Made by a program: the position numbers and the translations under genes | Assembly (NCBI GenBank): GCA_045628045.1 | Contig: JAZQOV010000002.1 | Span: forward strand, 1-64,000 | DNA from: Bacilli bacterium | GTDB lineage: Bacteria; Bacillota_I; Bacilli_A; RFN20; CAG-826 | Length of the DNA: 64,000 nt | Direction of reading: 5' to 3' | Shown here: positions 29,160-63,864 of the stretch, one piece after another | Numbering within the stretch: position 1 is the first letter of the stretch | How the letters are laid out: the number at the start of each line of letters is the position of its first letter | The notes under the pieces: model-generated | What the model was told of the DNA's origin: nothing | Seen by the model: only the letters and a program-made list of their open reading frames with translations | Databases searched by the model: none

Positions 29160-30146
29160 ATGGCAAATCTTGCAAAACCATTTGAACGTTCAGCATTCAA
29201 AGTTGCTCAAATTGATGCTTCCGATAATTATGGTAAATTCGTTATTGAACCTCTAGAAAGAGGTTATGGATTAACAATCGGTAACTCTCTTCGTAGAATC
29301 CTTCTTTCAAGCCTCCCAGGCGCAAGCGTCTGTGGCGTTGAAATTGAAGGTGCCCAACATGAATTCAGTGCCCTTAAAGGCATTGAAGAAGATGTCACTT
29401 CAATTATTCTTAATTTAAGAGACATTATTTGGACTATCGAAGACGAAGAAAAAGAAGACAAGAAAGTTACAATTTCTGTCAAAGGACCAAAAGTCGTTAA
29501 GGCAAGTGATTTAGAACTTCCAGCCTTCGTTAAGATCGTTAATCCAGATGTCGAAATTGCTCATGTTACAGCAAGTGGCACACTCACTATGAACGTTTAT
29601 GTTCGTAGAGGACGTGGCTACATGACCGCTGAAAATAACAAACAAATTAAAGGCAAAATCGATGTCACACAACTTGGTTATATTGTTACTGACTCAAATT
29701 ACTCACCAGTCACACGTGCAGCCTACGCTGTAGAGCCAGCCCGTGTTGGTCATGATTCAAGATTTGATAAGTTAACACTTGAAGTTTGGACAAATGGATC
29801 TATTCTTCCACAAAAAGCAGTTGCTTTAGCAGCAGAAATGCTTGTCACAAACTTAATGCCATTCGTCGAACTTGAAAAAGCTGTTGAAGAAATCAACATG
29901 ATCAAGGAAGAAGAAAAGGTTGAAGAAAACAAGTTTGAAGTTATGCCAATTGAAGAACTTGATCTCTCTGTTCGTAGCTACAACTGCTTAAAGAGAGCCG
30001 CAATTTCAACAGTTGCAGAACTTACTCAAAAAACAGAAGAAGAAATGATGAAGGTTAGAAACCTTGGTAAGAAATCCCTTAAAGAAGTTAAGGAAAAACT
30101 TGCTGAGAATGGCCTCTCATTCCGTGAAATTGCACCAGGAGAATAA
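29160..30146 (+). CDS. rpoA: RNA polymerase alpha subunit
   Basis: EPLERGYG.TIGNSLRRILLSS and LSVRSYNCLKRA motifs. Confidence 0.99.
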   Translation: MANLAKPFERSAFKVAQIDASDNYGKFVIEPLERGYGLTIGNSLRRILLSSLPGASVCGVEIEGAQHEFSALKGIEEDVTSIILNLRDIIWTIEDEEKEDKKVTISVKGPKVVKASDLELPAFVKIVNPDVEIAHVTASGTLTMNVYVRRGRGYMTAENNKQIKGKIDVTQLGYIVTDSNYSPVTRAAYAVEPARVGHDSRFDKLTLEVWTNGSILPQKAVALAAEMLVTNLMPFVELEKAVEEINMIKEEEKVEENKFEVMPIEELDLSVRSYNCLKRAAISTVAELTQKTEEEMMKVRNLGKKSLKEVKEKLAENGLSFREIAPGE

Positions 30147-30148
30147 TT

Positions 30149-30529
30149 ATGGCAGCACAAGGTAGAAAAAACGTACATGGTAAGACTGGCGTCAGATTCA
30201 AAGCAGCCTATACCAAACAAAAATATGAAAATATGCTTCGTAATGTCGTCACTGACTTAGTCATGCACGATAGAGTAACCGTAACTTCTGGCGTTGCTAA
30301 AGATCTCAAATCCTTAGCAGACCACTTAGTTACCTTAGGTAAACGTGGCGATTTACATGCTCGTAGACAAGCCGCAGCAGTCTTAAGAAGCGGTGAAGCA
30401 GTTACTAAATTATTTAGTGAACTTGCTCCAGCAATGAAAGACCGCAAAGGCGGATACACTCGCGCAATTAAAGCTGGTGTACGTCTCGGCGACAATGCTC
30501 GAAAGATCATTGTTGAATTTGTTAAATAA
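30149..30529 (+). CDS. rplQ: 50S ribosomal protein L17 (divergent N-terminus)
   Basis: LVTLGKRGDLHARRQAA, R.GGYTR and R.GDNA motifs. Confidence 0.96.
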   Translation: MAAQGRKNVHGKTGVRFKAAYTKQKYENMLRNVVTDLVMHDRVTVTSGVAKDLKSLADHLVTLGKRGDLHARRQAAAVLRSGEAVTKLFSELAPAMKDRKGGYTRAIKAGVRLGDNARKIIVEFVK

Positions 30530-30544
30530 TTAACAATTTCTAAA

Positions 30545-30575
30545 AACAAGGGGGAACTTCGGTTCCTCTTTTTTC
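30545..30575 (+). terminator. rplQ operon terminator (repeat copy 1)
   Basis: AAGGGGGAAC-TTCG-GTTCCTCTT plus T-run. Confidence 0.88.
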
Positions 30576-30732
30576 TTTTTTAAAATTGCTTTTTTATAAT
30601 TGTTGAATAACATAGTTAATTTTCTATTATTAAAAATTTATTAACACAAATTGCTTTTTTACTCGTATTTAGTAAGTAGAGAGGAGCAAAATTTTTGAAT
30701 TGAAATAATTACAAAATAATTATATAATCATT

Positions 30733-31017
30733 ATGCTTAAATTTGAATGGAATGAAATAAAAAATATACTCAACAAAAAGAAACACGGCTTATCCTTTGA
30801 TGATGCTCTTTATATGTTTTATGATGACAATGCATTATTGCTGTATGACAAAAACCATAGTAATGACGAAGATAGATTCTTCCAAATTGGAATGATTAGA
30901 TCTTTAAATATAGTTTGTGTTGTATTTTGTGTAAGAGAAGAAGAAACAATTAGAATAATATCTGCTAGATTTGCAACAAATAAGGAGAAAAATGAATATG
31001 AAAGAAAAAGAGTTTAA
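30733..31017 (+). CDS. brnT: BrnT family type II toxin
   Basis: FEWNE.KN..N.KKHGLSF, HS..EDRF..IG and IRIISAR motifs. Confidence 0.92.
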   Translation: MLKFEWNEIKNILNKKKHGLSFDDALYMFYDDNALLLYDKNHSNDEDRFFQIGMIRSLNIVCVVFCVREEETIRIISARFATNKEKNEYERKRV

Positions 31018-31243
31018 TGAAATGGAATACGATATTCCGGAAGAAATCGATTTTAAGGACGCTGTTAAGAGTCCATATTCAAAGTTATTAAAACAACAAA
31101 TAACCATTAATCTTTCAAAAGAAGTCATTGATTACTTTAAGAGTGAATCTAAAGAAGTTGGTATTCCTTATCAAACTTTAATTAATCTATATTTAATGGA
31201 ATGTGCAAAAAAGAATTTAAAATTAAACATAAATTGGAAATAG
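30992..31243 (+). CDS. BrnA-type (CopG/RHH-like) antitoxin
   Basis: EIDF..A.KSPY...KQQITINL....IDYFK......GIPYQTLIN; overlaps brnT; start could be 30998. Confidence 0.85.
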   Translation: MNMKEKEFNEMEYDIPEEIDFKDAVKSPYSKLLKQQITINLSKEVIDYFKSESKEVGIPYQTLINLYLMECAKKNLKLNINWK

Positions 31244-31315
31244 TTCACTAATATAAAAATACATGTGAAAAATTATTCACTTACAGAAAATGAGAAATTT
31301 CATATAATAGTGCTG

Positions 31316-31888
31316 ATGAAAAAATTCCAGGATCAATTACGTGAATTAAGAATGAAATCTGGCCTTTCTCAATCAGAATTGGCGAATAAAATTTTTGTGT
31401 CACGCACGCTCATAACAAAATATGAATGTGGCAAAGCAAAACCATCAAAAGAAAATATTGAAAAATTAGCATTGTTTTTCAATGTAAAACTGAGCTATTT
31501 TGAAGATGTTATTATTCAGAACGATAAAATATCTAAAAAGATAAATCTTGTTTTTTGTTCAATTATTTTCCTATTATTTTTGTCATTTTTATTGTTCGTA
31601 AGTCTTCCTTATATTTCCTACAATACTTTTAATTCTCATAAAATTTCTAATCCAACTTTATTTTGGTCAGGATTAGAAATAACCTTGTATTATAAAAATT
31701 ATTTTATTTTAATCACCCTTGCCACTCTGTTAAGCAGTGTTGTTTTGTCTATACTAAGCTTAGTAAAACCAGATAAAATTTGGTATAGATATATAAACTA
31801 CGCTTTGTTCATTATAAATATTCTTTTAGTGATTTTTTCAGTCATGTGTGTTATTAGTTATTCAGAAAGCGGATATTTTTTACAATAG
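31316..31888 (+). CDS. XRE-family HTH regulator with C-terminal transmembrane helices
   Basis: LRELRMKSGLSQSELA...YECG...P HTH followed by about 3 hydrophobic segments. Confidence 0.8.
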   Translation: MKKFQDQLRELRMKSGLSQSELANKIFVSRTLITKYECGKAKPSKENIEKLALFFNVKLSYFEDVIIQNDKISKKINLVFCSIIFLLFLSFLLFVSLPYISYNTFNSHKISNPTLFWSGLEITLYYKNYFILITLATLLSSVVLSILSLVKPDKIWYRYINYALFIINILLVIFSVMCVISYSESGYFLQ

Positions 31889-31896
31889 GAGATTGC

Positions 31897-32481
31897 ATGA
31901 AATTTAGATTAGGTAGATTTATGTTATTGTGTCCTCTACTTCGCTCTTGCGAGAATATTTTTTATGCAAAATATGGGCCATTAACATCTAAGATAAATCA
32001 TTATGAAACTTATAATGAACTAATTTCTCATTTTTATGGTGTTTTAGATAAAAATATCCACGAAAACCGCGATTTTTATATTCCAAATTTATTATTTGAC
32101 AATCATAAAATAGATTATTTTGTAGGTGGAATCGATTATTCTTATTTACATTTAAAAGATTATGAAAAGCACAAAGAAGAAAATTCCGACTATCTTTCTC
32201 TAAAAGGAGTTTTTTATGAATTGAGAAATGATAGTGATTTAATAGTTACATTGGTATTTAAAAACTGCATTAATTTTGAAAAAGATAAAATCTATTGGAC
32301 AGACGAAAAACTATATTACAATGGGACATACGAAAAAAATGCTCTAGTAAGTACTTCTAATTACCTTCTTTATGGAAGTGAACAAATCCTTTGCTTAAAA
32401 TTTAATACTGAATCCGTTACTGAAGAAACTGTTGAGTTCTACAAGAATCAGATTTATTCTCAAATAGCCAACAATTTCTAA
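31897..32481 (+). CDS. Hypothetical protein, possibly a lipoprotein
   Basis: AGGAG RBS; degenerate LLRSC lipobox-like signal; no family recognised. Confidence 0.55.
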   Translation: MKFRLGRFMLLCPLLRSCENIFYAKYGPLTSKINHYETYNELISHFYGVLDKNIHENRDFYIPNLLFDNHKIDYFVGGIDYSYLHLKDYEKHKEENSDYLSLKGVFYELRNDSDLIVTLVFKNCINFEKDKIYWTDEKLYYNGTYEKNALVSTSNYLLYGSEQILCLKFNTESVTEETVEFYKNQIYSQIANNF

Positions 32482-32510
32482 AATAAAGGAGAACTTTCTC
32501 TTTTCTTTAA
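32470..32510 (+). repeat. Decayed copy (copy 2) of the rplQ 3' UTR/terminator
   Basis: AACAATTTCTAAAA identical to 30532-30545, then AAGGAGAACTT..TCTCTTTT with an internal deletion. Confidence 0.65.
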
Positions 32511-32600
32511 TTATAAATCGTACGAAATTTTTAAATTTATCGTACAAAATATTTGAAATTATCATACTTTTTCTTTATAATATTTTTGAGGTATATAAAT

Positions 32601-32825
32601 ATGTGCACAATTACAGCGACAGAACTAAAAGAAAATCTTGGTAAATATTTACTTAAAGCAACCAAAGAAGAAATTTTAATAACTAAAAATGGAAAGCCAT
32701 TTATTAGACTTTGCAGTGTAAAATCTGAAACTTTAGATGATTTTTTCAAAGATATGGAAAACTTAATTAACCCAGATGACGTTGACTTAAAGGACCCTAA
32801 AATTGCAGGGATGTTAGGTTTATAA
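32601..32825 (+). CDS. Type II antitoxin, Phd/YefM family
   Basis: ITATELKENLGKYL....KEEILITKNGK; GAGGT RBS before ATG 32601. Confidence 0.88.
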   Translation: MCTITATELKENLGKYLLKATKEEILITKNGKPFIRLCSVKSETLDDFFKDMENLINPDDVDLKDPKIAGMLGL

Positions 32826-33226
32826 TGAGATTGCTATTAGATACAAATATTATTTTAGATTTGATTTATACTAGAAAAGAATCAAGCAAAGATGTTTTTA
32901 GAGTTGCCAAAAATAATTTAGACGAAATTTACATTTGTTCGTATACCTTAAAAGATATTGCATATTTTCTCAAGAAGACAATGCATGACAATAACAAAGT
33001 AAATAATGCTCTTATCAAAATATATTCAAATATTTCTAAAATTGTGGGAGTAAACTCTGATGATGCTATTGAAGCATTATACTTAGATGGAGATTATGAA
33101 GATAATGTTATGATAGAAGTGTCAAAAACAGCAATGTGTGATGCAATAATCACAAACAATAAAAAGCACTTTATTAATAAAGAGGTTGTAATCTTAACTC
33201 CAGAAGAATATTTAAAGGTGCGTTAA
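32825..33226 (+). CDS. PIN-domain toxin (VapC-like)
   Basis: LLLDTNIILD, DYED, CDAIIT.N.KHF and TPEE motifs; TAATG coupling. Confidence 0.88.
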   Translation: MRLLLDTNIILDLIYTRKESSKDVFRVAKNNLDEIYICSYTLKDIAYFLKKTMHDNNKVNNALIKIYSNISKIVGVNSDDAIEALYLDGDYEDNVMIEVSKTAMCDAIITNNKKHFINKEVVILTPEEYLKVR

Positions 33227-33270
33227 TGAGATTAGATAAGTATTTAGCAAATTCAGGAGTTGGTTCACGC
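33226..33270 (+). pseudogene. 5' remnant (15 codons) of a diverged rsuA allele
   Basis: MRLDKYLANSGVGSR vs MRLDKYLANSGIGSR at 34227; 38 of the first 41 nt identical, then homology stops. Confidence 0.85.
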
Positions 33271-33298
33271 TTAGAAACAAATAATTTAAAATATGCAG

Positions 33299-33331
33299 AA
33301 CAAAGGGGAACTTTGGTTCCTCTTTCCTTTT
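33299..33331 (+). terminator. Copy 3 of the rplQ terminator
   Basis: AACAAAGGGGAACTTTGGTTCCTCTTT, 25/27 identical to 30545-30571. Confidence 0.8.
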
Positions 33332-33339
33332 TAAAAAAG

Positions 33340-33361
33340 TGTATGGACAAATGTATGGACA
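33340..33361 (+). promoter_or_regulatory. Direct-repeat operator upstream of the MNT-HEPN operon
   Basis: TGTATGGACA x2 (33340-33349, 33352-33361) just upstream of TATAAT. Confidence 0.55.
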
Positions 33362-33389
33362 TTTTTTATAATTTAACTGAGGAAAAATT

Positions 33390-33884
33390 ATGGAAAGAGA
33401 TTCAAAGTTTATGTTTAGAATTAATTCTGAACTTAAAAAGACTGTTTCAGATATGCTGGAAAAAGAAGGATACACGTTTAGCGATTTTTTAAATGCTGCC
33501 TGTATGGACTTAGCAAAAAGAAAATTTATTCCAATATACATTAGAGGTAATCTACCTAACCATTACGCAAAACAATCTGAAATTACTATTGCACTAATTA
33601 AAAAGGCTTTAGAATGTGCAATAAAAAAATATGGAAAAGGGAAAGTAAAAAAAGGCTATCTTTTTGGATCCGTTTCTAGAGGAGAACAAAAAGCAAACTC
33701 AGATATTGATTTAAGATTAGAATTAGACAAAGGGCTCACTTTGACAGATTTAGAAAATATGAGGATTGATATTTCTTCTTCGACAGGAAAAGAAATAGAT
33801 ATGATTACAGCACCTATCAGCGATTTAGATCCAACTTTTTATCAAATAATTAAAAAAGACGAGATATGCATTTATGAAAGATAG
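33390..33884 (+). CDS. RelB/RHH-like domain fused to minimal nucleotidyltransferase (MntA-like antitoxin)
   Basis: FRINSELK....ML...G.T.SD N-terminus; YLFGS.SRGE....SDIDL MNT motif. Confidence 0.8.
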   Translation: MERDSKFMFRINSELKKTVSDMLEKEGYTFSDFLNAACMDLAKRKFIPIYIRGNLPNHYAKQSEITIALIKKALECAIKKYGKGKVKKGYLFGSVSRGEQKANSDIDLRLELDKGLTLTDLENMRIDISSSTGKEIDMITAPISDLDPTFYQIIKKDEICIYER

Positions 33885-34203
33885 AGACGGATTACTAGTA
33901 ACGCTTATTAATAATCATTACAAAGAGCTTTTAGATGAACTCGAATCAATTCGCGATAATTATGAAGAATATTGTAATAATTCGATTGTACGAAAAGCTA
34001 TTTGGCTAGATGTAATGCAAATTGGAGAGAATGTTAATCAATTAACAGATCAATTTGCAGAAAAGATAAATTTAAACGATTTGAAAGGCATCATTTCGAT
34101 AAGAAATTTTATTGTTCATGGTTATGTTTATACTGATAAAGATGTTATTTGGAACACAATACATGAAGATTTACCAAAATTAATTCGAAAAATTAATAAA
34201 TAG
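33874..34203 (+). CDS. HEPN (DUF86, HepT-like) RNase toxin
   Basis: QIGENV, RNFIVHGY (Rx4H) and IWNTI..DLP motifs. Confidence 0.88.
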   Translation: MKDRDGLLVTLINNHYKELLDELESIRDNYEEYCNNSIVRKAIWLDVMQIGENVNQLTDQFAEKINLNDLKGIISIRNFIVHGYVYTDKDVIWNTIHEDLPKLIRKINK

Positions 34204-34226
34204 AGATTAACAATAGAAATTGTAAA

Positions 34227-34925
34227 ATGAGATTAGATAAATATTTAGCAAATTCTGGAATTGGTTCTAGAAGCGAAGTTAAACGCTTTATTAAAGATAA
34301 ATTAGTCAAAGTAAATGGCGAAGTTATTAAAAGCGAATCTTTTAACGTTGATGAGAATAAAGATATAGTCCTCTTTAATGAAAAAGAGGTCAAATACCAA
34401 GAGTTTTATTATTTTGTGTTAAATAAGCCGACTGGCTATGTTTCCGCGGTTATAGATAACGTTTATCCTCCAGTTATGGATTTACTTCCAGAATATTCAT
34501 TCGTAGATTTATTTCCGGTTGGAAGATTAGATGTTGATACAACAGGCACGTTATTAATCACAAATGATGGTGATCTTACTCACAAATTACTTAGCCCAAA
34601 GTATCATGTTGATAAAACCTACTTTGTAGAAGTTGATAAAAAATTAGATAAAACCTTGGTAGGTAAATTTAAACAAGGCATTTTACTTGATGGTGAACTT
34701 ACTTTGCCTGCAGATTTGCTTATTTTGTCTGATACAACATGTGAACTCACAATTCATCAGGGTAAATTTCATCAAGTTAAGCGCATGTTTAAGAAATTTG
34801 GATATGAAGTTACTAAACTTGATCGAAAATCATTCGCTTTCCTTAATCATGAAGACCTTGAATTAGGTAAATATAGAGAGTTAACTCAAGACGAAATAAA
34901 CAAGCTTAAAGAATTTGTGAAATAA
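34227..34925 (+). CDS. rsuA: rRNA pseudouridine synthase, RsuA family
   Basis: S4 domain MRLDKYL; NKP.GYVS, PVGRLDVDTTG and GKFHQVKRMF motifs. Confidence 0.92.
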   Translation: MRLDKYLANSGIGSRSEVKRFIKDKLVKVNGEVIKSESFNVDENKDIVLFNEKEVKYQEFYYFVLNKPTGYVSAVIDNVYPPVMDLLPEYSFVDLFPVGRLDVDTTGTLLITNDGDLTHKLLSPKYHVDKTYFVEVDKKLDKTLVGKFKQGILLDGELTLPADLLILSDTTCELTIHQGKFHQVKRMFKKFGYEVTKLDRKSFAFLNHEDLELGKYRELTQDEINKLKEFVK

Positions 34926-34963
34926 TTTATTGAAATTTGAAATAATTTATTTAATATAAAGTT

Positions 34964-36640
34964 ATGGCAATAAATGATTTATTAGAACCAGAACTACTTT
35001 ATACTAGTGAGTTAAAACAAAAACATAACGATAATGTCGTTAGTTATTTTGATAATCTTGTGAAAATTTCTGGTGTCGATCCAGAAGAAAATAAAAAGAC
35101 ATGCAAAGCATATTATGATGCTTGTGCAGATTTAGAAAAGCTCAATAAGAAATCAAGGAATCTTAATCTTCTTAAAGTATTATTTATAATTCTTTGTTTC
35201 GTAATTGTGGGTATTTTCTTACTTATTTTCGTATATAAACCAAAAAGAAAAGCATTAGATGAGAAAATTAAAGAACAGCAAAATCTTGTGAATTCTTTGC
35301 TCGCAAAGGCAAATCAAGAGATGGCTCCTCTTAATGCATTATTTGAGTCTTCAATTCCATCAAAGATTATGGAGACAACAACTCCACTTATTGATATGGA
35401 TCGTATTTTCGATGTTAAGAAATACGAAGTTTTACGTGACAAATATGGAATGTGGGATAACTCAGATGAAGATTCATCTACTTTAGATTTACAATCCGGA
35501 AATATCCTCGGTAATCCTTTCGTTGTTTTTAAAGAATTAAATAAGAAAATGATGATGGAACGTTACGAAGGAACTCTTAGCATTTCTTACTATGTAGGTT
35601 CAGGCCAAAATAGAAGATTAATGGTTGAGACATTACACGCTTTTGTTGAAAAACCAAAACCAGTTTATAGTACAAACACCTACTTGCTTTATGGTAATGA
35701 TGCAGCACCAAATTTAACATTCTCTAGAAATGCTTCAGAGATTAATAAACTAGATGAAAAAGGTATTGAAAAATACGTAAGACATCATGAGAAAGATTTG
35801 GAAAAAATGGCGGAAAAAGCCACGAAAAAGGGTGGAAATTACACTCCTTTAGGAAATTCTGAGTTTGAATTATTCTTTGGTGGATTAGATAGAAATAATG
35901 AAATCGAGTATCGACTTTTGTTCACTCCGCTTGCACAAAAATCGATGCTTCAAATTCTCAAATCAAAAGTCGGATTTGGTGATGACTTTAGATTTGTGAA
36001 AGATAAAGGTCTTAACCTTATCACAAGCACTCACTCACAAGGAGATGTCTTGTTCGTAAATGCTAGTGATTTTATGGGTTTTGATTTTGAAAAAGTTAAA
36101 GAGTTCTTTATTACATTCAATAACAATTATTTCAAAGCTTTGTTCTTTGACTTTGCACCTTTACTTGCAATTCCTTTATATCAACAACATAAATCACAAG
36201 AATACATTTATAAAAATAATGTTGGCTCAAACTTTAACTGTTTTGAACACGAAGTTGTCGCAAATAGGTTTGATATTTCAAGATTTAAACCGAAAAATGC
36301 GGGAACAAATGTGATTTTGAAAACTTCTGTAGTTTCAAAAGAAAAAGAAAGTGATATTGTTAATGTTAGTGCACATGCATTTGAAAAGTTTTCACGCACT
36401 GACTATGTTCCAAAACTAGGTGGTGATGGAAAGATGCATAGCGTACCTGTGCATTGGGTTGAATACGTCCCTGTCTCACGTGATGAACAAATTCGTATTT
36501 CTGACCTTGGACTTGATGATGAAGTTAAGTTCAATAAATACGGTCAAAGAGATGTTATTTACGCTAAAGGCCTTGTCTCTATAGAGAAGGACATTAACGT
36601 GGATATAGAAAAAATTAAGTCTTTTATGAAAAAAGACTAG
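34964..36640 (+). CDS. Conserved membrane-anchored protein upstream of lemA
   Basis: One N-terminal hydrophobic segment with coiled coil; SGNILGNPF, EYRLLFTPLAQ and GGDG..H.VPV.W motifs resemble the Mollicutes LemA-neighbour protein. Confidence 0.6.
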   Translation: MAINDLLEPELLYTSELKQKHNDNVVSYFDNLVKISGVDPEENKKTCKAYYDACADLEKLNKKSRNLNLLKVLFIILCFVIVGIFLLIFVYKPKRKALDEKIKEQQNLVNSLLAKANQEMAPLNALFESSIPSKIMETTTPLIDMDRIFDVKKYEVLRDKYGMWDNSDEDSSTLDLQSGNILGNPFVVFKELNKKMMMERYEGTLSISYYVGSGQNRRLMVETLHAFVEKPKPVYSTNTYLLYGNDAAPNLTFSRNASEINKLDEKGIEKYVRHHEKDLEKMAEKATKKGGNYTPLGNSEFELFFGGLDRNNEIEYRLLFTPLAQKSMLQILKSKVGFGDDFRFVKDKGLNLITSTHSQGDVLFVNASDFMGFDFEKVKEFFITFNNNYFKALFFDFAPLLAIPLYQQHKSQEYIYKNNVGSNFNCFEHEVVANRFDISRFKPKNAGTNVILKTSVVSKEKESDIVNVSAHAFEKFSRTDYVPKLGGDGKMHSVPVHWVEYVPVSRDEQIRISDLGLDDEVKFNKYGQRDVIYAKGLVSIEKDINVDIEKIKSFMKKD

Positions 36641-56897: not shown

Positions 56898-58001
56898 ATG
56901 ATTAGAGAAATAACCGAAAAAGAAATTAAAGCTTTTATCAACTTTGGAGATGCTTTATACAAAGGTGATAAAAACTATATTCCTTATATTAATAAGGATT
57001 TAAAAAAGACACTTAAAAGACTAGTCTTCTTCAGAAAAACATATTTCGCAGTATGTCATTTCGATAAGAATAACAAGGTTGATGGTCGAGTGTTATTAAC
57101 AATTGGAAAAAGCAAACAACTTAAATCAGATAAGTGCGGATATTTTTCGCATATTGAGTTTGTTGAGAATTATGATGTTTTTAAGGAATTAATGGATTTC
57201 TCCCTTAATTTATTAAAGGAAAAAGGTGCTGATTGCACATGTGGAACTTTTTTCCATCATGATCCAGACAACAGAAGAGGCATTTTAATTGATAACTTCG
57301 ATACATTCCCAATGCTTTTTACATCTTATAATAAACCTTATTACAAAGATTACTTTGAAAAGTATGGATTTAAGAAATTAATCGATGCTCTTGAATATGA
57401 ATATTCTTTTAAAGAAGATAAGATGAAAGCCGTTAAAGAAAAAGGTGAACAAGCTTTAATTGATAATGACATTCATATTGATAAAGCAGACTTAAAGCAG
57501 CTTGATAGAGAAATTGAAGCGGTTCATGACATTATGGTGACCGCATCAACTTCAATAAATTTTGAAGAAGTTATTTCTAAAGAACAGATTAAAAAAATCT
57601 TTTATTCTTTTAAATCATTCCTTAATCCAGATTATGTATTTTTTGCAAGAACAAATAAAGATAATAGACCAATTGGTTTTACTTTCGCATTACCTAATTA
57701 CAATGAGGTAATTAAGAAAATGAACGGGAAAACCAATATATTTTCACTAATTAAGTTCGCTATTTATAAAAAACGCATTACAGGTTTAAGGGCAATGCTT
57801 CAATACATAATTCCTGAATATCAACACAAAGGAATTTCAAAAGCTTTATATAATGAAACAAGAAAATCAATTGAGAAAAATCACATTACTCGTGTAGGGC
57901 TTGGAACCATTATGGAAAACAATGATAAATCAAATGGACTTGTTGTTTCTGCTGGAGGAGTTAGATCGAAAACCTACCGCATCTACTATAAAGAATTATG
58001 A
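56898..58001 (+). CDS. YghO-like tandem GNAT acyltransferase (bacterial ceramide synthase-like family)
   Basis: LY..D.NY.P, GRV, GYF..IE, GIL.D.FD......YN.PYY...FE..GF.K..D, PEYQ.KG and K.YRIY.K motifs. Confidence 0.7.
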   Translation: MIREITEKEIKAFINFGDALYKGDKNYIPYINKDLKKTLKRLVFFRKTYFAVCHFDKNNKVDGRVLLTIGKSKQLKSDKCGYFSHIEFVENYDVFKELMDFSLNLLKEKGADCTCGTFFHHDPDNRRGILIDNFDTFPMLFTSYNKPYYKDYFEKYGFKKLIDALEYEYSFKEDKMKAVKEKGEQALIDNDIHIDKADLKQLDREIEAVHDIMVTASTSINFEEVISKEQIKKIFYSFKSFLNPDYVFFARTNKDNRPIGFTFALPNYNEVIKKMNGKTNIFSLIKFAIYKKRITGLRAMLQYIIPEYQHKGISKALYNETRKSIEKNHITRVGLGTIMENNDKSNGLVVSAGGVRSKTYRIYYKEL

Positions 58002-62939: not shown

Positions 62940-63864
62940 TGAATTTGTAGATGGTGATCACATTATTGGACAACTTTTAGTTGTAAGTGCAGTAAAAGGC
63001 ACAACAGATAAAGGTTTAAATTACTTAAACGTAACATTCCAAGATAAAACCGGTTCTATTGAAGCTAAAAAATGGGATGCCACAAGTGAAGACTTAAAAG
63101 TTTTGGTGCCAGGCAGCGTTGTAGTGGTGGATGGAATTGTAAATTTATATAAAAACCAACCACAACTTAAGATTGTTGAGGTCTCTAAAACTGAACCAGG
63201 CGAAGTTAATATGACAAATTTCGCAAGAGTTTCACCAATTCCATTAGAAAAGCTTAAAGCAAAGCTTGAAGGCTACTTAAATAGCTTTACTGATAAAGAT
63301 GTTGAAAAAGTTGCTAGAGCTGTTATTAGCCATTTTTATGAGAAATACACAATTTATCCTGGTGCTGTAAAAGTTCACCATGAATTTGGATCAGGTATTT
63401 TACATCACTCACTTTTTATGGCAGATGTCGCAGATGCAATTGCCAAGATTTACACTCAAGTTGATAGAGATATTCTTGTTGCAGGTGCTCTTCTTCACGA
63501 CATTGGTAAAACAATTGAATACGAAAATCCAATTGCACCAGTGCAAACTACCGAAGGTAAGCTTATTGGTCACATTGCAATCGGTTACTCAGAATTTAAG
63601 AAAGTAGTGGAATCTCTTAACATTACTTCAGAAGTCCCACTTCTTCTTGAACACATGATTCTTGCACACCATGGTACACTTGAGTTTGGTTCTCCAGTAA
63701 TGCCATCAACTCGTGAAGCTTTGCTTCTTGCAGAGATTGATATGCTCGATTCACGTCAAATGATCTTGGATAAATCACTTGCAACAATTAATGAAGGTGA
63801 ATTCACTCAGCGTTTATGGATGATGGACGATACAGCCTTCTATAAACCAAAATCAAGAAAATAA
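62926..63864 (+). CDS. yhaM: 3'-5' exoribonuclease YhaM/Cbf1 (OB + HD domains)
   Basis: DKTG.IEAK.W OB fold; HH...G...H, LLHDIGK, GHI and ILAHHG.LEFGSP motifs. Confidence 0.9.
   Translation: MKWVNEFVDGDHIIGQLLVVSAVKGTTDKGLNYLNVTFQDKTGSIEAKKWDATSEDLKVLVPGSVVVVDGIVNLYKNQPQLKIVEVSKTEPGEVNMTNFARVSPIPLEKLKAKLEGYLNSFTDKDVEKVARAVISHFYEKYTIYPGAVKVHHEFGSGILHHSLFMADVADAIAKIYTQVDRDILVAGALLHDIGKTIEYENPIAPVQTTEGKLIGHIAIGYSEFKKVVESLNITSEVPLLLEHMILAHHGTLEFGSPVMPSTREALLLAEIDMLDSRQMILDKSLATINEGEFTQRLWMMDDTAFYKPKSRK

Follow-up and report, generated by a model that had tools for sequence, protein, structure and literature searches.

Several described systems place small, strain-variable sets of genes at one chromosomal site, and we compare them here. 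Integrons, and clusters of attC sites lacking integron-integrases (CALINs), are tandem, strain-variable arrays that include toxin-antitoxin (TA) cassettes and differ in cassette order (PMC8618304); in true integrons, transformation has been tied to cassette shuffling (PMC12614218). Accretion of integrative and conjugative, integrative and mobilizable, and cis-mobilizable elements (ICEs, IMEs and CIMEs) in streptococci leaves integrase-less tandem units that repeat the terminal part of the target gene, CIME accretion using a fixed att core and an integrase (PMC5704250). Minimal mobile elements (MMEs) and hotspots free of mobile genetic elements (MGEs) carry alternative small gene sets between conserved genes (PMC1797815, PMC5635113); an integrase is encoded in only 45% of hotspots (PMC5635113). 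Finally, homology-facilitated illegitimate recombination combines a RecA-dependent anchor with a short microhomology joint; PMC6382021 credits 2002 work together with Meier and Wackernagel 2003 for it, and states that no description from B. subtilis existed at the time. Here we analyze the interval between rplQ (ribosomal protein L17) and an rsuA-family pseudouridine synthase gene in the genome of a Bacilli bacterium of the genus CAG-826 (G000; 1.07 Mb, 14 contigs, 96% complete). The window, i.e., the whole stretch of DNA that was analyzed, corresponds to the opening 64 kb of contig C2.

Three TA modules in tandem separate rplQ and rsuA, at the positions claimed in the original prediction, which had been made from the sequence of the window. 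The locus is real, strain-variable and unusually legible, and represents an additive form of an MME or MGE-free hotspot, not an integron. In common with the MGE-free hotspots (PMC5635113), it contains alternative small gene sets, no integrase at the site and a host with transformation genes. However, in such hotspots a double crossover puts one cassette in the place of another, whereas the rplQ-rsuA cassettes accumulate and change order, exchange taking place at duplicated terminators and gene stubs; moreover, one of the flanks, rsuA, is accessory. We put at about 0.62 the probability that this is a strain-variable hotspot of self-promoted cassettes, which has grown by rare illegitimate joints at a homologous anchor and by reuse of the repeats. 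Homologous recombination of the host, and not an integrase, probably added the cassettes. Every ingredient of this reading is known already, and the surprise is moderate. The features of the interval are listed below (G, genomes; L, loci; X, metagenome runs); module 1 comprises BrnT/BrnA, an XRE protein with putative transmembrane segments and an orphan gene, module 2 Phd/PIN, and module 3 RelB-like-MNT/HEPN, as classified with Pfam.

30149..30529, +, rplQ, the upstream core gene and anchor; open reading frame (ORF) with an orthologue in 55 of 61 related genomes
30524..30582, +, rplQ stop, 3' untranslated region (UTR) and intrinsic terminator T1 (stem 30548-30571), a hairpin that also stands behind rplQ in G021, G017, G008 and G033
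30700..30728, +, promoter-like site of module 1, an 11/12 consensus match in the promoter scan
30733..31017, +, BrnT toxin (Pfam PF04365, 82.8 bits, cut-off 34.5)
30998..31243, +, BrnA antitoxin (Pfam PF14384, 31.9 bits, cut-off 26.1)
31316..31888, +, XRE helix-turn-helix protein (Pfam HTH_3) with a hydrophobic C-terminal half, membrane segments assigned by eye from the sequence
31897..32481, +, orphan gene of 194 amino acids (aa), its native 3' end replaced at 32471 as judged from joints in X3 and X13
32462..32471, +, joint J1 between the orphan gene's end and the rplQ stop region, 7/10 identity, 2 exact bases at the crossover
32470..32510, +, T2, a decayed copy of the terminator, with a 14-mer of the rplQ UTR and a shortened loop and right arm
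32553..32581, +, promoter-like site of module 2, after operator-like repeats kept in L060, L054 and G016
32601..32825, +, Phd/YefM antitoxin (Pfam PF02604, 32.7 bits, cut-off 29.8)
32825..33226, +, PIN (PIN_3) toxin (Pfam PF13470, 59.9 bits, cut-off 27)
33226..33270, +, rsuA scar, the first 44-45 bases of another rsuA allele, with joint J2 at ~33269
33270..33337, +, 9 bases followed by AAATAA, a spacer and T3, a further copy of the terminator (stem 33302-33325)
33344..33372, +, promoter-like site of module 3, accompanied by two direct operator-like repeats similar to those preceding the gene's relatives elsewhere
33390..33884, +, RelB-like-MNT antitoxin fusion (Pfam Polbeta 45 bits, RelB 22.9 bits; NCBIfam MntA under cut-off)
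33874..34203, +, HEPN (HepT-like) toxin (Pfam PF01934, 51.8 bits)
34227..34925, +, intact rsuA-family pseudouridine synthase gene (Pfam RsuA), the downstream flank, accessory in the genus
34964..36640, +, MAG1210-family gene, located directly after rplQ in 8 of 31 genus loci

The terminator copies could be recognized ahead of each module, as predicted, with one of them decayed. T1 (30545-30571) and T3 (33299-33325) are identical at 25 of 27 bases, and no site in the 1.07 Mb genome other than T3 comes within 7 mismatches of T1. The terminator scan calls both as intrinsic (-11.5 and -11.8 kcal/mol). T2 has in common with T1 an exact 14-mer, which occurs at no third site in the genome, and its hairpin is weak (-6.3 kcal/mol) and was overlooked by the terminator scan; an intact form of T2, which links rplQ directly to the Phd promoter, is present in X11. 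None of 1000 composition-matched random sequences reached 14/14, 25/27 or 38/42 matches (maxima 13, 18 and 28, respectively). The likeness of T3 to the rplQ end does not extend upstream of its AAATAA: the 9 bases ahead of this hexamer match no rplQ end in 33 loci (15-mer identity 4-7), and thus only the stop-like hexamer, the spacer and the hairpin are rplQ-like. Matches to the 32 bases before T3 did not exceed 23/32 in the 3.7 Mb of DNA compared. Furthermore, each module has ahead of it one of the region's three top-scoring promoter-like sites (11/12), although the number of such sites over the whole region is not above that in shuffled sequences (28 vs 31.8).

Module 2 ends in a scar of a different kind. 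The end of the PIN gene is TAATG-coupled to 15 codons of rsuA (33226-33270), in which 6 of 45 bases are not those of the intact gene; four of the altered codons are synonymous and one is non-synonymous (V12I), the valine of the stub being the residue present in relatives. The prediction that this stub came from the rsuA of another strain was borne out by X2, where a low-depth genome carries Phd/PIN 97-98% identical to that of the window: its record 20 matches 32989-33269 with 6/281 differences and then runs collinearly into rsuA with 30/190 differences, so that an intact rsuA, ~84% identical to that of the window, stands behind Phd/PIN. A loose end in X11 likewise continues the scar into an intact rsuA. 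Thus, the scar is a foreign allele. The other joint, J1, is located 20 bases from the rsuA start and 4 bases from the rplQ stop. In X13 (side 68 bases) and X3 (side 29), the orphan gene is joined at 32471 via the same 20 bases to the start of rsuA, indicating that its native end was cut at J1.

Strain haplotypes were obtained from 7 of the 16 listed metagenome runs, representing 4 studies, with joints read from short-read metagenome contigs aligned at 85-88% likeness; the runs containing the stretch derive mostly from animal gut. A single 6861-nt contig of X1 (depth 40) covers 30044-36600, differing from the window in 125 places and having 1 gap. Thus, an independent strain possesses the whole stack, which is not an assembly chimera of strains. 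In other strains and in close species, modules are missing, exchanged for others or differently ordered. In X12, position 31275 is joined to 33328 (31276-33327 absent; side 255 bases, depth 31), and the XRE gene, the orphan gene, T2, Phd/PIN, the scar and T3 are all missing. Two contigs of X11 carry hybrid terminators: in one, the left part of T1 is fused to the right part of T2 and the Phd promoter (side 42, depth 8); in the other, the left part of T3 is fused to the right part of T1 and the module 1 promoter (side 47, depth 3.4). If both contigs belong to one genome, module 2 precedes module 1 there. A third kind of hybrid, T2-left/T3-right, is found around insertion sequence (IS) ends in the major strain of X2, where module 2 is missing at that depth. 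Given that the exchange points fall within them, the terminator copies are not passive scars. The same X2 strain has ~120 bases of the rplQ 3' end repeated around an extra segment of at most 1.9 kb, and gap counts suggest that the downstream copy is the usual rplQ allele of the species. The toxin genes are also subject to deletion: the HEPN gene of X2, X12 and X13 has lost 234 bases in frame between 6-base repeats, and with them what is presumably the R-x4-H motif; brnT is deleted in X3 (side 39, depth 7.5); and PIN is lost in L098.

Three further joints of X3 were set aside. Two of them lead to 34963 and 35377 (sides of 26 and 22 bases); the third, 30535-33303 (side 23), was attributed to another species because its letters fit the rplQ UTR of G017 and G033. 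In X3, the zero depth over module 3 was not counted as evidence, nor was that over module 2 in X5.

Single-cassette versions of the interval, which had been predicted, were found in addition to the direct passage of the orphan gene into rsuA in X3 and X13. The metagenome locus L060 reads rplQ-terminator-Phd/PIN-rsuA, and both L056 and G021 read rplQ-terminator-GH2-rsuA. The sequence GH2-terminator-Phd/PIN-rsuA is present in L054 and GH2-terminator-Phd-rsuA in L098, whereas in G016 two unassigned ORFs, a lipoprotein-like gene and a terminator precede Phd/PIN and rsuA (AbiEi/AbiEii labels for these ORFs, given by look alone, were dropped, with no Pfam or NCBIfam family matching). The layout is nevertheless less general than had been anticipated. 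In the genus set of 37 genomes (G000 and 36 others), rsuA has a match at E<=1e-25 in only 3 (G016 and G021 beside that of the window), each time behind rplQ. The putative rsuA-family modifying enzyme is thus itself accessory cargo, and the rplQ-cassette-rsuA arrangement is limited to a small clade. L060, L056, L054 and L098 are 4 of 45 metagenome rsuA loci, of which 1 more was close but had no upstream DNA, and 40 were <70% identical; 9 of these 40 had their gene neighbourhood listed, and the contexts were unrelated. The closest named records to the rplQ of the window are uncultured Bacilli with 54-66% identity, and a scan of named genomes with rplQ yielded no genus member among the matches.

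By sequence comparison, the paired genes are assigned to the BrnT/BrnA, Phd/PIN and MNT/HEPN families. All six proteins pass the Pfam cut-offs, whereas the narrower NCBIfam models MntA, HepT and BrnA were not reached; the N-terminal domain of the MNT protein, first labelled RHH, is RelB-like in Pfam. The orphan 194-aa protein has no Pfam family and no Atlas match at >=0.9. None of the ORFs between rplQ and rsuA is an integrase or a transposase, each being either assigned or without family, and an Rfam scan of 30000-35100 produced five matches, all far under the gathering scores. BrnT has no match at E<=1e-10 among the 36 other genus genomes, and no close relative of MNT (10 candidates) or PIN (7 candidates) was found in viral contigs. 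The PIN protein of the window has, near its C-terminus (33160-33175), H in place of the D present in G016, L060 and L054, as well as 3 residues fewer near the N-terminus; these changes may weaken the toxin. In G016, a 66-aa ORF (L031:1299-1496), with no Pfam or NCBIfam family, has a tail resembling by eye the PIN C-terminus and is apparently a fusion remnant.

What was observed directly comprises the repeats and the strain differences, the versions with a single cassette, an rsuA of donor type behind Phd/PIN and, in addition, hybrid terminators and deletions in toxin genes. For the homology-anchored stacking proposed earlier, we infer the following mechanism. An array would be born when DNA of a relative with a different cassette pairs with the recipient through one long flank and its other end is joined by microhomology or an illegitimate joint, as at J1 and J2; both cassettes would be kept, and a gene end or a terminator would be left in duplicate. 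Homology-facilitated illegitimate recombination would yield J1 in this manner; that process is known from laboratory transformation (PMC6382021), whereas the present locus offers natural footprints with the anchor region partly duplicated. Subsequently, the duplicate would work as a short second homology arm (27-150 bases), allowing a cassette to be added before whatever the recipient carries, to be reordered, or to be looped out. Because replacing or looping out an active TA pair would kill the cell, addition would be favoured over replacement, and a cassette might be lost more easily once its toxin carries a deletion. Delivery is likely to occur by natural transformation, the least certain step. 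Of the competence genes that the original prediction proposed to look for, G000 possesses comEA and comEC as open frames side by side, as well as dprA and recA.

Double crossover at the flanks explains the replacement, not the growth, of integrase-less hotspots. The rplQ locus preserves footprints of growth in natural strains, namely, joints, a donor allele, hybrid terminators and toxin deletions, and bears on how small genomes gather TA and defence genes without mobile elements. The mechanism predicts that a short terminator arm combined with a resident TA pair favours addition over replacement. In the literature searched, which covers few subscription journals, no TA stacks delimited by terminator or gene-end scars are described.

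Similar architectures were found elsewhere in the genus. A repeated rplQ UTR/terminator is present in 3 of the 31 genus loci compared downstream of rplQ (G000, G007 and G015) and was found in none of the 20 loci that represent named records or other genera; the hits in L112, L199 and L206, weak and AT-rich, were disregarded. On contig C13 of G000 (L216:117-2523), the 3' end of the GGGtGRT gene and its terminator occur three times (93-95% identical); behind these lie an AAA_14/DUF4143 ATPase gene, Phd/ParE and another Phd-led pair. TA genes are carried by two of the three C13 units and by all three modules of the window. Scars of the GGGtGRT 3' end are found in 3 of the 8 genus genomes possessing the gene, with left edges at -106, -101, -88 and -26. 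In G017, the scar, together with its terminator, is like the version resident in the sister genome G033 (95% across the 2.9 kb that follow), whereas the intact GGGtGRT gene, 99% identical as far as its last 100 bases, is 89% identical within them and is followed by a different, foreign terminator. Thus, the newcomer was inserted beside the core gene, and the old end was pushed downstream. The mosaic 3' end of this gene hints at raised homologous recombination in flanking core genes. A broader proposal, that cassettes accrete without recombinases throughout the genome, is tentative. In it, a single illegitimate joint would convert a replacement-type cassette into an additive one, any duplicated terminator or gene end serving as a reusable arm; transformation would then insert, reorder and excise cassettes behind core genes, and TA addiction would lengthen the arrays. 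If true, integron-like behaviour would arise from housekeeping recombination alone.

As had been noted originally, the outcome is integron-like and no integrase is in view, but the likeness does not amount to identity. The placement of a newcomer beside a fixed site is matched here by G017, the sole case that could be polarized, and the repeats consist of terminators and gene ends of variable length, instead of the attC-type paired cores seen in integrons and CALINs (PMC8618304). The integron integrase IntI was not found in G000 (TIGR02249 at 144, 114 and 104 bits vs a cut-off of 265), and the three tyrosine recombinases of this genome are best matched as XerD, XerC and XerC. The third of them (L104:1093-1998, contig C6), XerC-like under cut-off, is encoded amid defence-like genes and is unlinked to the stack. 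The cores of attC sites conform to RYYYAAC and GTTRRRY. In a pattern test, no segment around T1, T2, J2/T3 or the rsuA start had both. Joints of the kind left by circular excised cassettes were absent from those listed for the assembled contigs.

A number of observations weigh against the proposed growth by homologous recombination and repeat reuse. No recombination event was observed, and the haplotypes give no direction, i.e., gain versus loss of module 2. Several of the haplotype joints have depths of 3-8 or sides <30 bases, the two X11 joints sit on separate contigs, and J2 has no clear microhomology, with no source found for the 9 bases that follow it. In 28 of the 31 genus rplQ loci (5 with <2.5 kb of downstream DNA), there is no repeat. 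The stacked cargo also includes lipoproteins and ATPases, so that addiction is not required. As for DNA uptake, the pilus ATPase is Tad/VirB11-like (64 vs the ComGA cut-off of 300), and the ComEC domain was found in only 20 of the 37 genus genomes, G016, G021 and G017, which carry cassettes or scars, not being among them (completeness 62, 97 and 93%, respectively). An IS that targets terminator loops is present in the hybrid terminator of X2 (window 32496/33315). Finally, relatives of the MNT gene occur at other loci, which implies that cassettes first reach a site by another route. Such relatives of RelB-like-MNT were seen in 7 genus genomes (L235-L241), several of them standing directly behind the terminator of another gene and having operator-like repeats of a similar kind.

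Other explanations are less probable. The IS belongs to the IS3 family and, we presume, to its IS150 group. Its insertions into the loops of intrinsic terminators produce 3-4-base duplications; in G000, one element lies in such a loop with a 3-base duplication (L105:1292-2523, C3:125504-126734), its ends coincide with four contig ends (C1, C3, C11 and C14), and the rplQ terminator of G007 (L038) contains a 23-base remnant of an IS end. Such an element might move or delete cassettes, whether through composite transposition, through adjacent deletion or by recombination of one IS copy with another, and the damage to T2 falls exactly at the loop, as do the IS ends in the X2 strain without module 2. 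However, the stack in the window contains no IS end, the hybrid terminators of X11 have no IS footprint, the T2 damage is also compatible with slippage between two TTC repeats, and J1, J2, the rplQ duplication of X2 and the GGGtGRT scars lie inside genes rather than loops. The IS as the agent is therefore improbable. Slightly less so, yet still rather doubtful, is site-specific accretion, by which integrase-less CIME-like remnants would have lined up at the rplQ 3' end through a recombinase acting in trans or since lost. Accretion does yield tandem units repeating the 3' end of a gene (PMC5704250), the newcomer of G017 brings its own gene end, and the recombinase on C6 does not look like a housekeeping enzyme. 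Nevertheless, in place of the fixed att core, the boundaries here vary by >100 bases: the left ones lie at ~0 and -122 at rplQ and at four different distances at GGGtGRT, and J2 is within the downstream gene rsuA and not within rplQ. Moreover, G000 has no match to the resolvase family, and inspection by eye of the ORFs behind rplQ in the listed loci, where no profile search was made, revealed no recognizable recombinase.

A further account has co-resident or merodiploid alleles, brought in by transduction, vesicles or conjugation, undergo unequal crossing-over. It would make the repeats by-products that are never reused and give toxins no part. It is compatible with competence being unproven and with the stacking of non-toxin cargo, but the three different hybrid terminators point to repeat reuse, TA genes recur in most units of both arrays, and close viral relatives of the MNT and PIN proteins were not found; we consider this account unlikely. 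By far the least probable is an artefact, either a chimeric assembly of strains or a local duplication followed by decay. The genome is in 14 contigs, and some runs contain a mixture of strains whose cassettes differ, but the X1 contig holds the stack at even depth and the scar continues as an intact foreign rsuA. Growth of the hotspot by illegitimate joints and repeat reuse thus remains our preferred reading of the locus.

Several other repeats separate genes in G000. An imperfect hairpin of 65 bases is present six times in L217:3618-11591 (C2:123617-131590), in four cases with a second hairpin; the copies each stand directly after a gene end and separate MNT/HEPN, an AbiEii pair, RhuM, XRE and a cation efflux gene; the source gene of this repeat was not found. 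A second repeat family, consisting of a terminator and a promoter-like stretch in four copies (L217:13670-19000, on to C2:142026), separates AAA_21, AbiH and other defence-like genes. The short contig C4 (2077 bases) carries an exact 56-base terminal repeat (1-56 and 2022-2077) and is either a small circular element or an assembly overlap. On C6, a 195-base repeat (57303-57496 and 63145-63338, 93%) holds the promoter and 61 initial bases of an ABC ATPase-like gene and, as a 5' scar, resembles the rsuA stub. In three other genomes of the genus (G031, G036 and G006; L048, L050 and L189), the first 7 kb behind rplQ are occupied by a seven-gene cluster with HypA/HypB-like genes, labelled by look.

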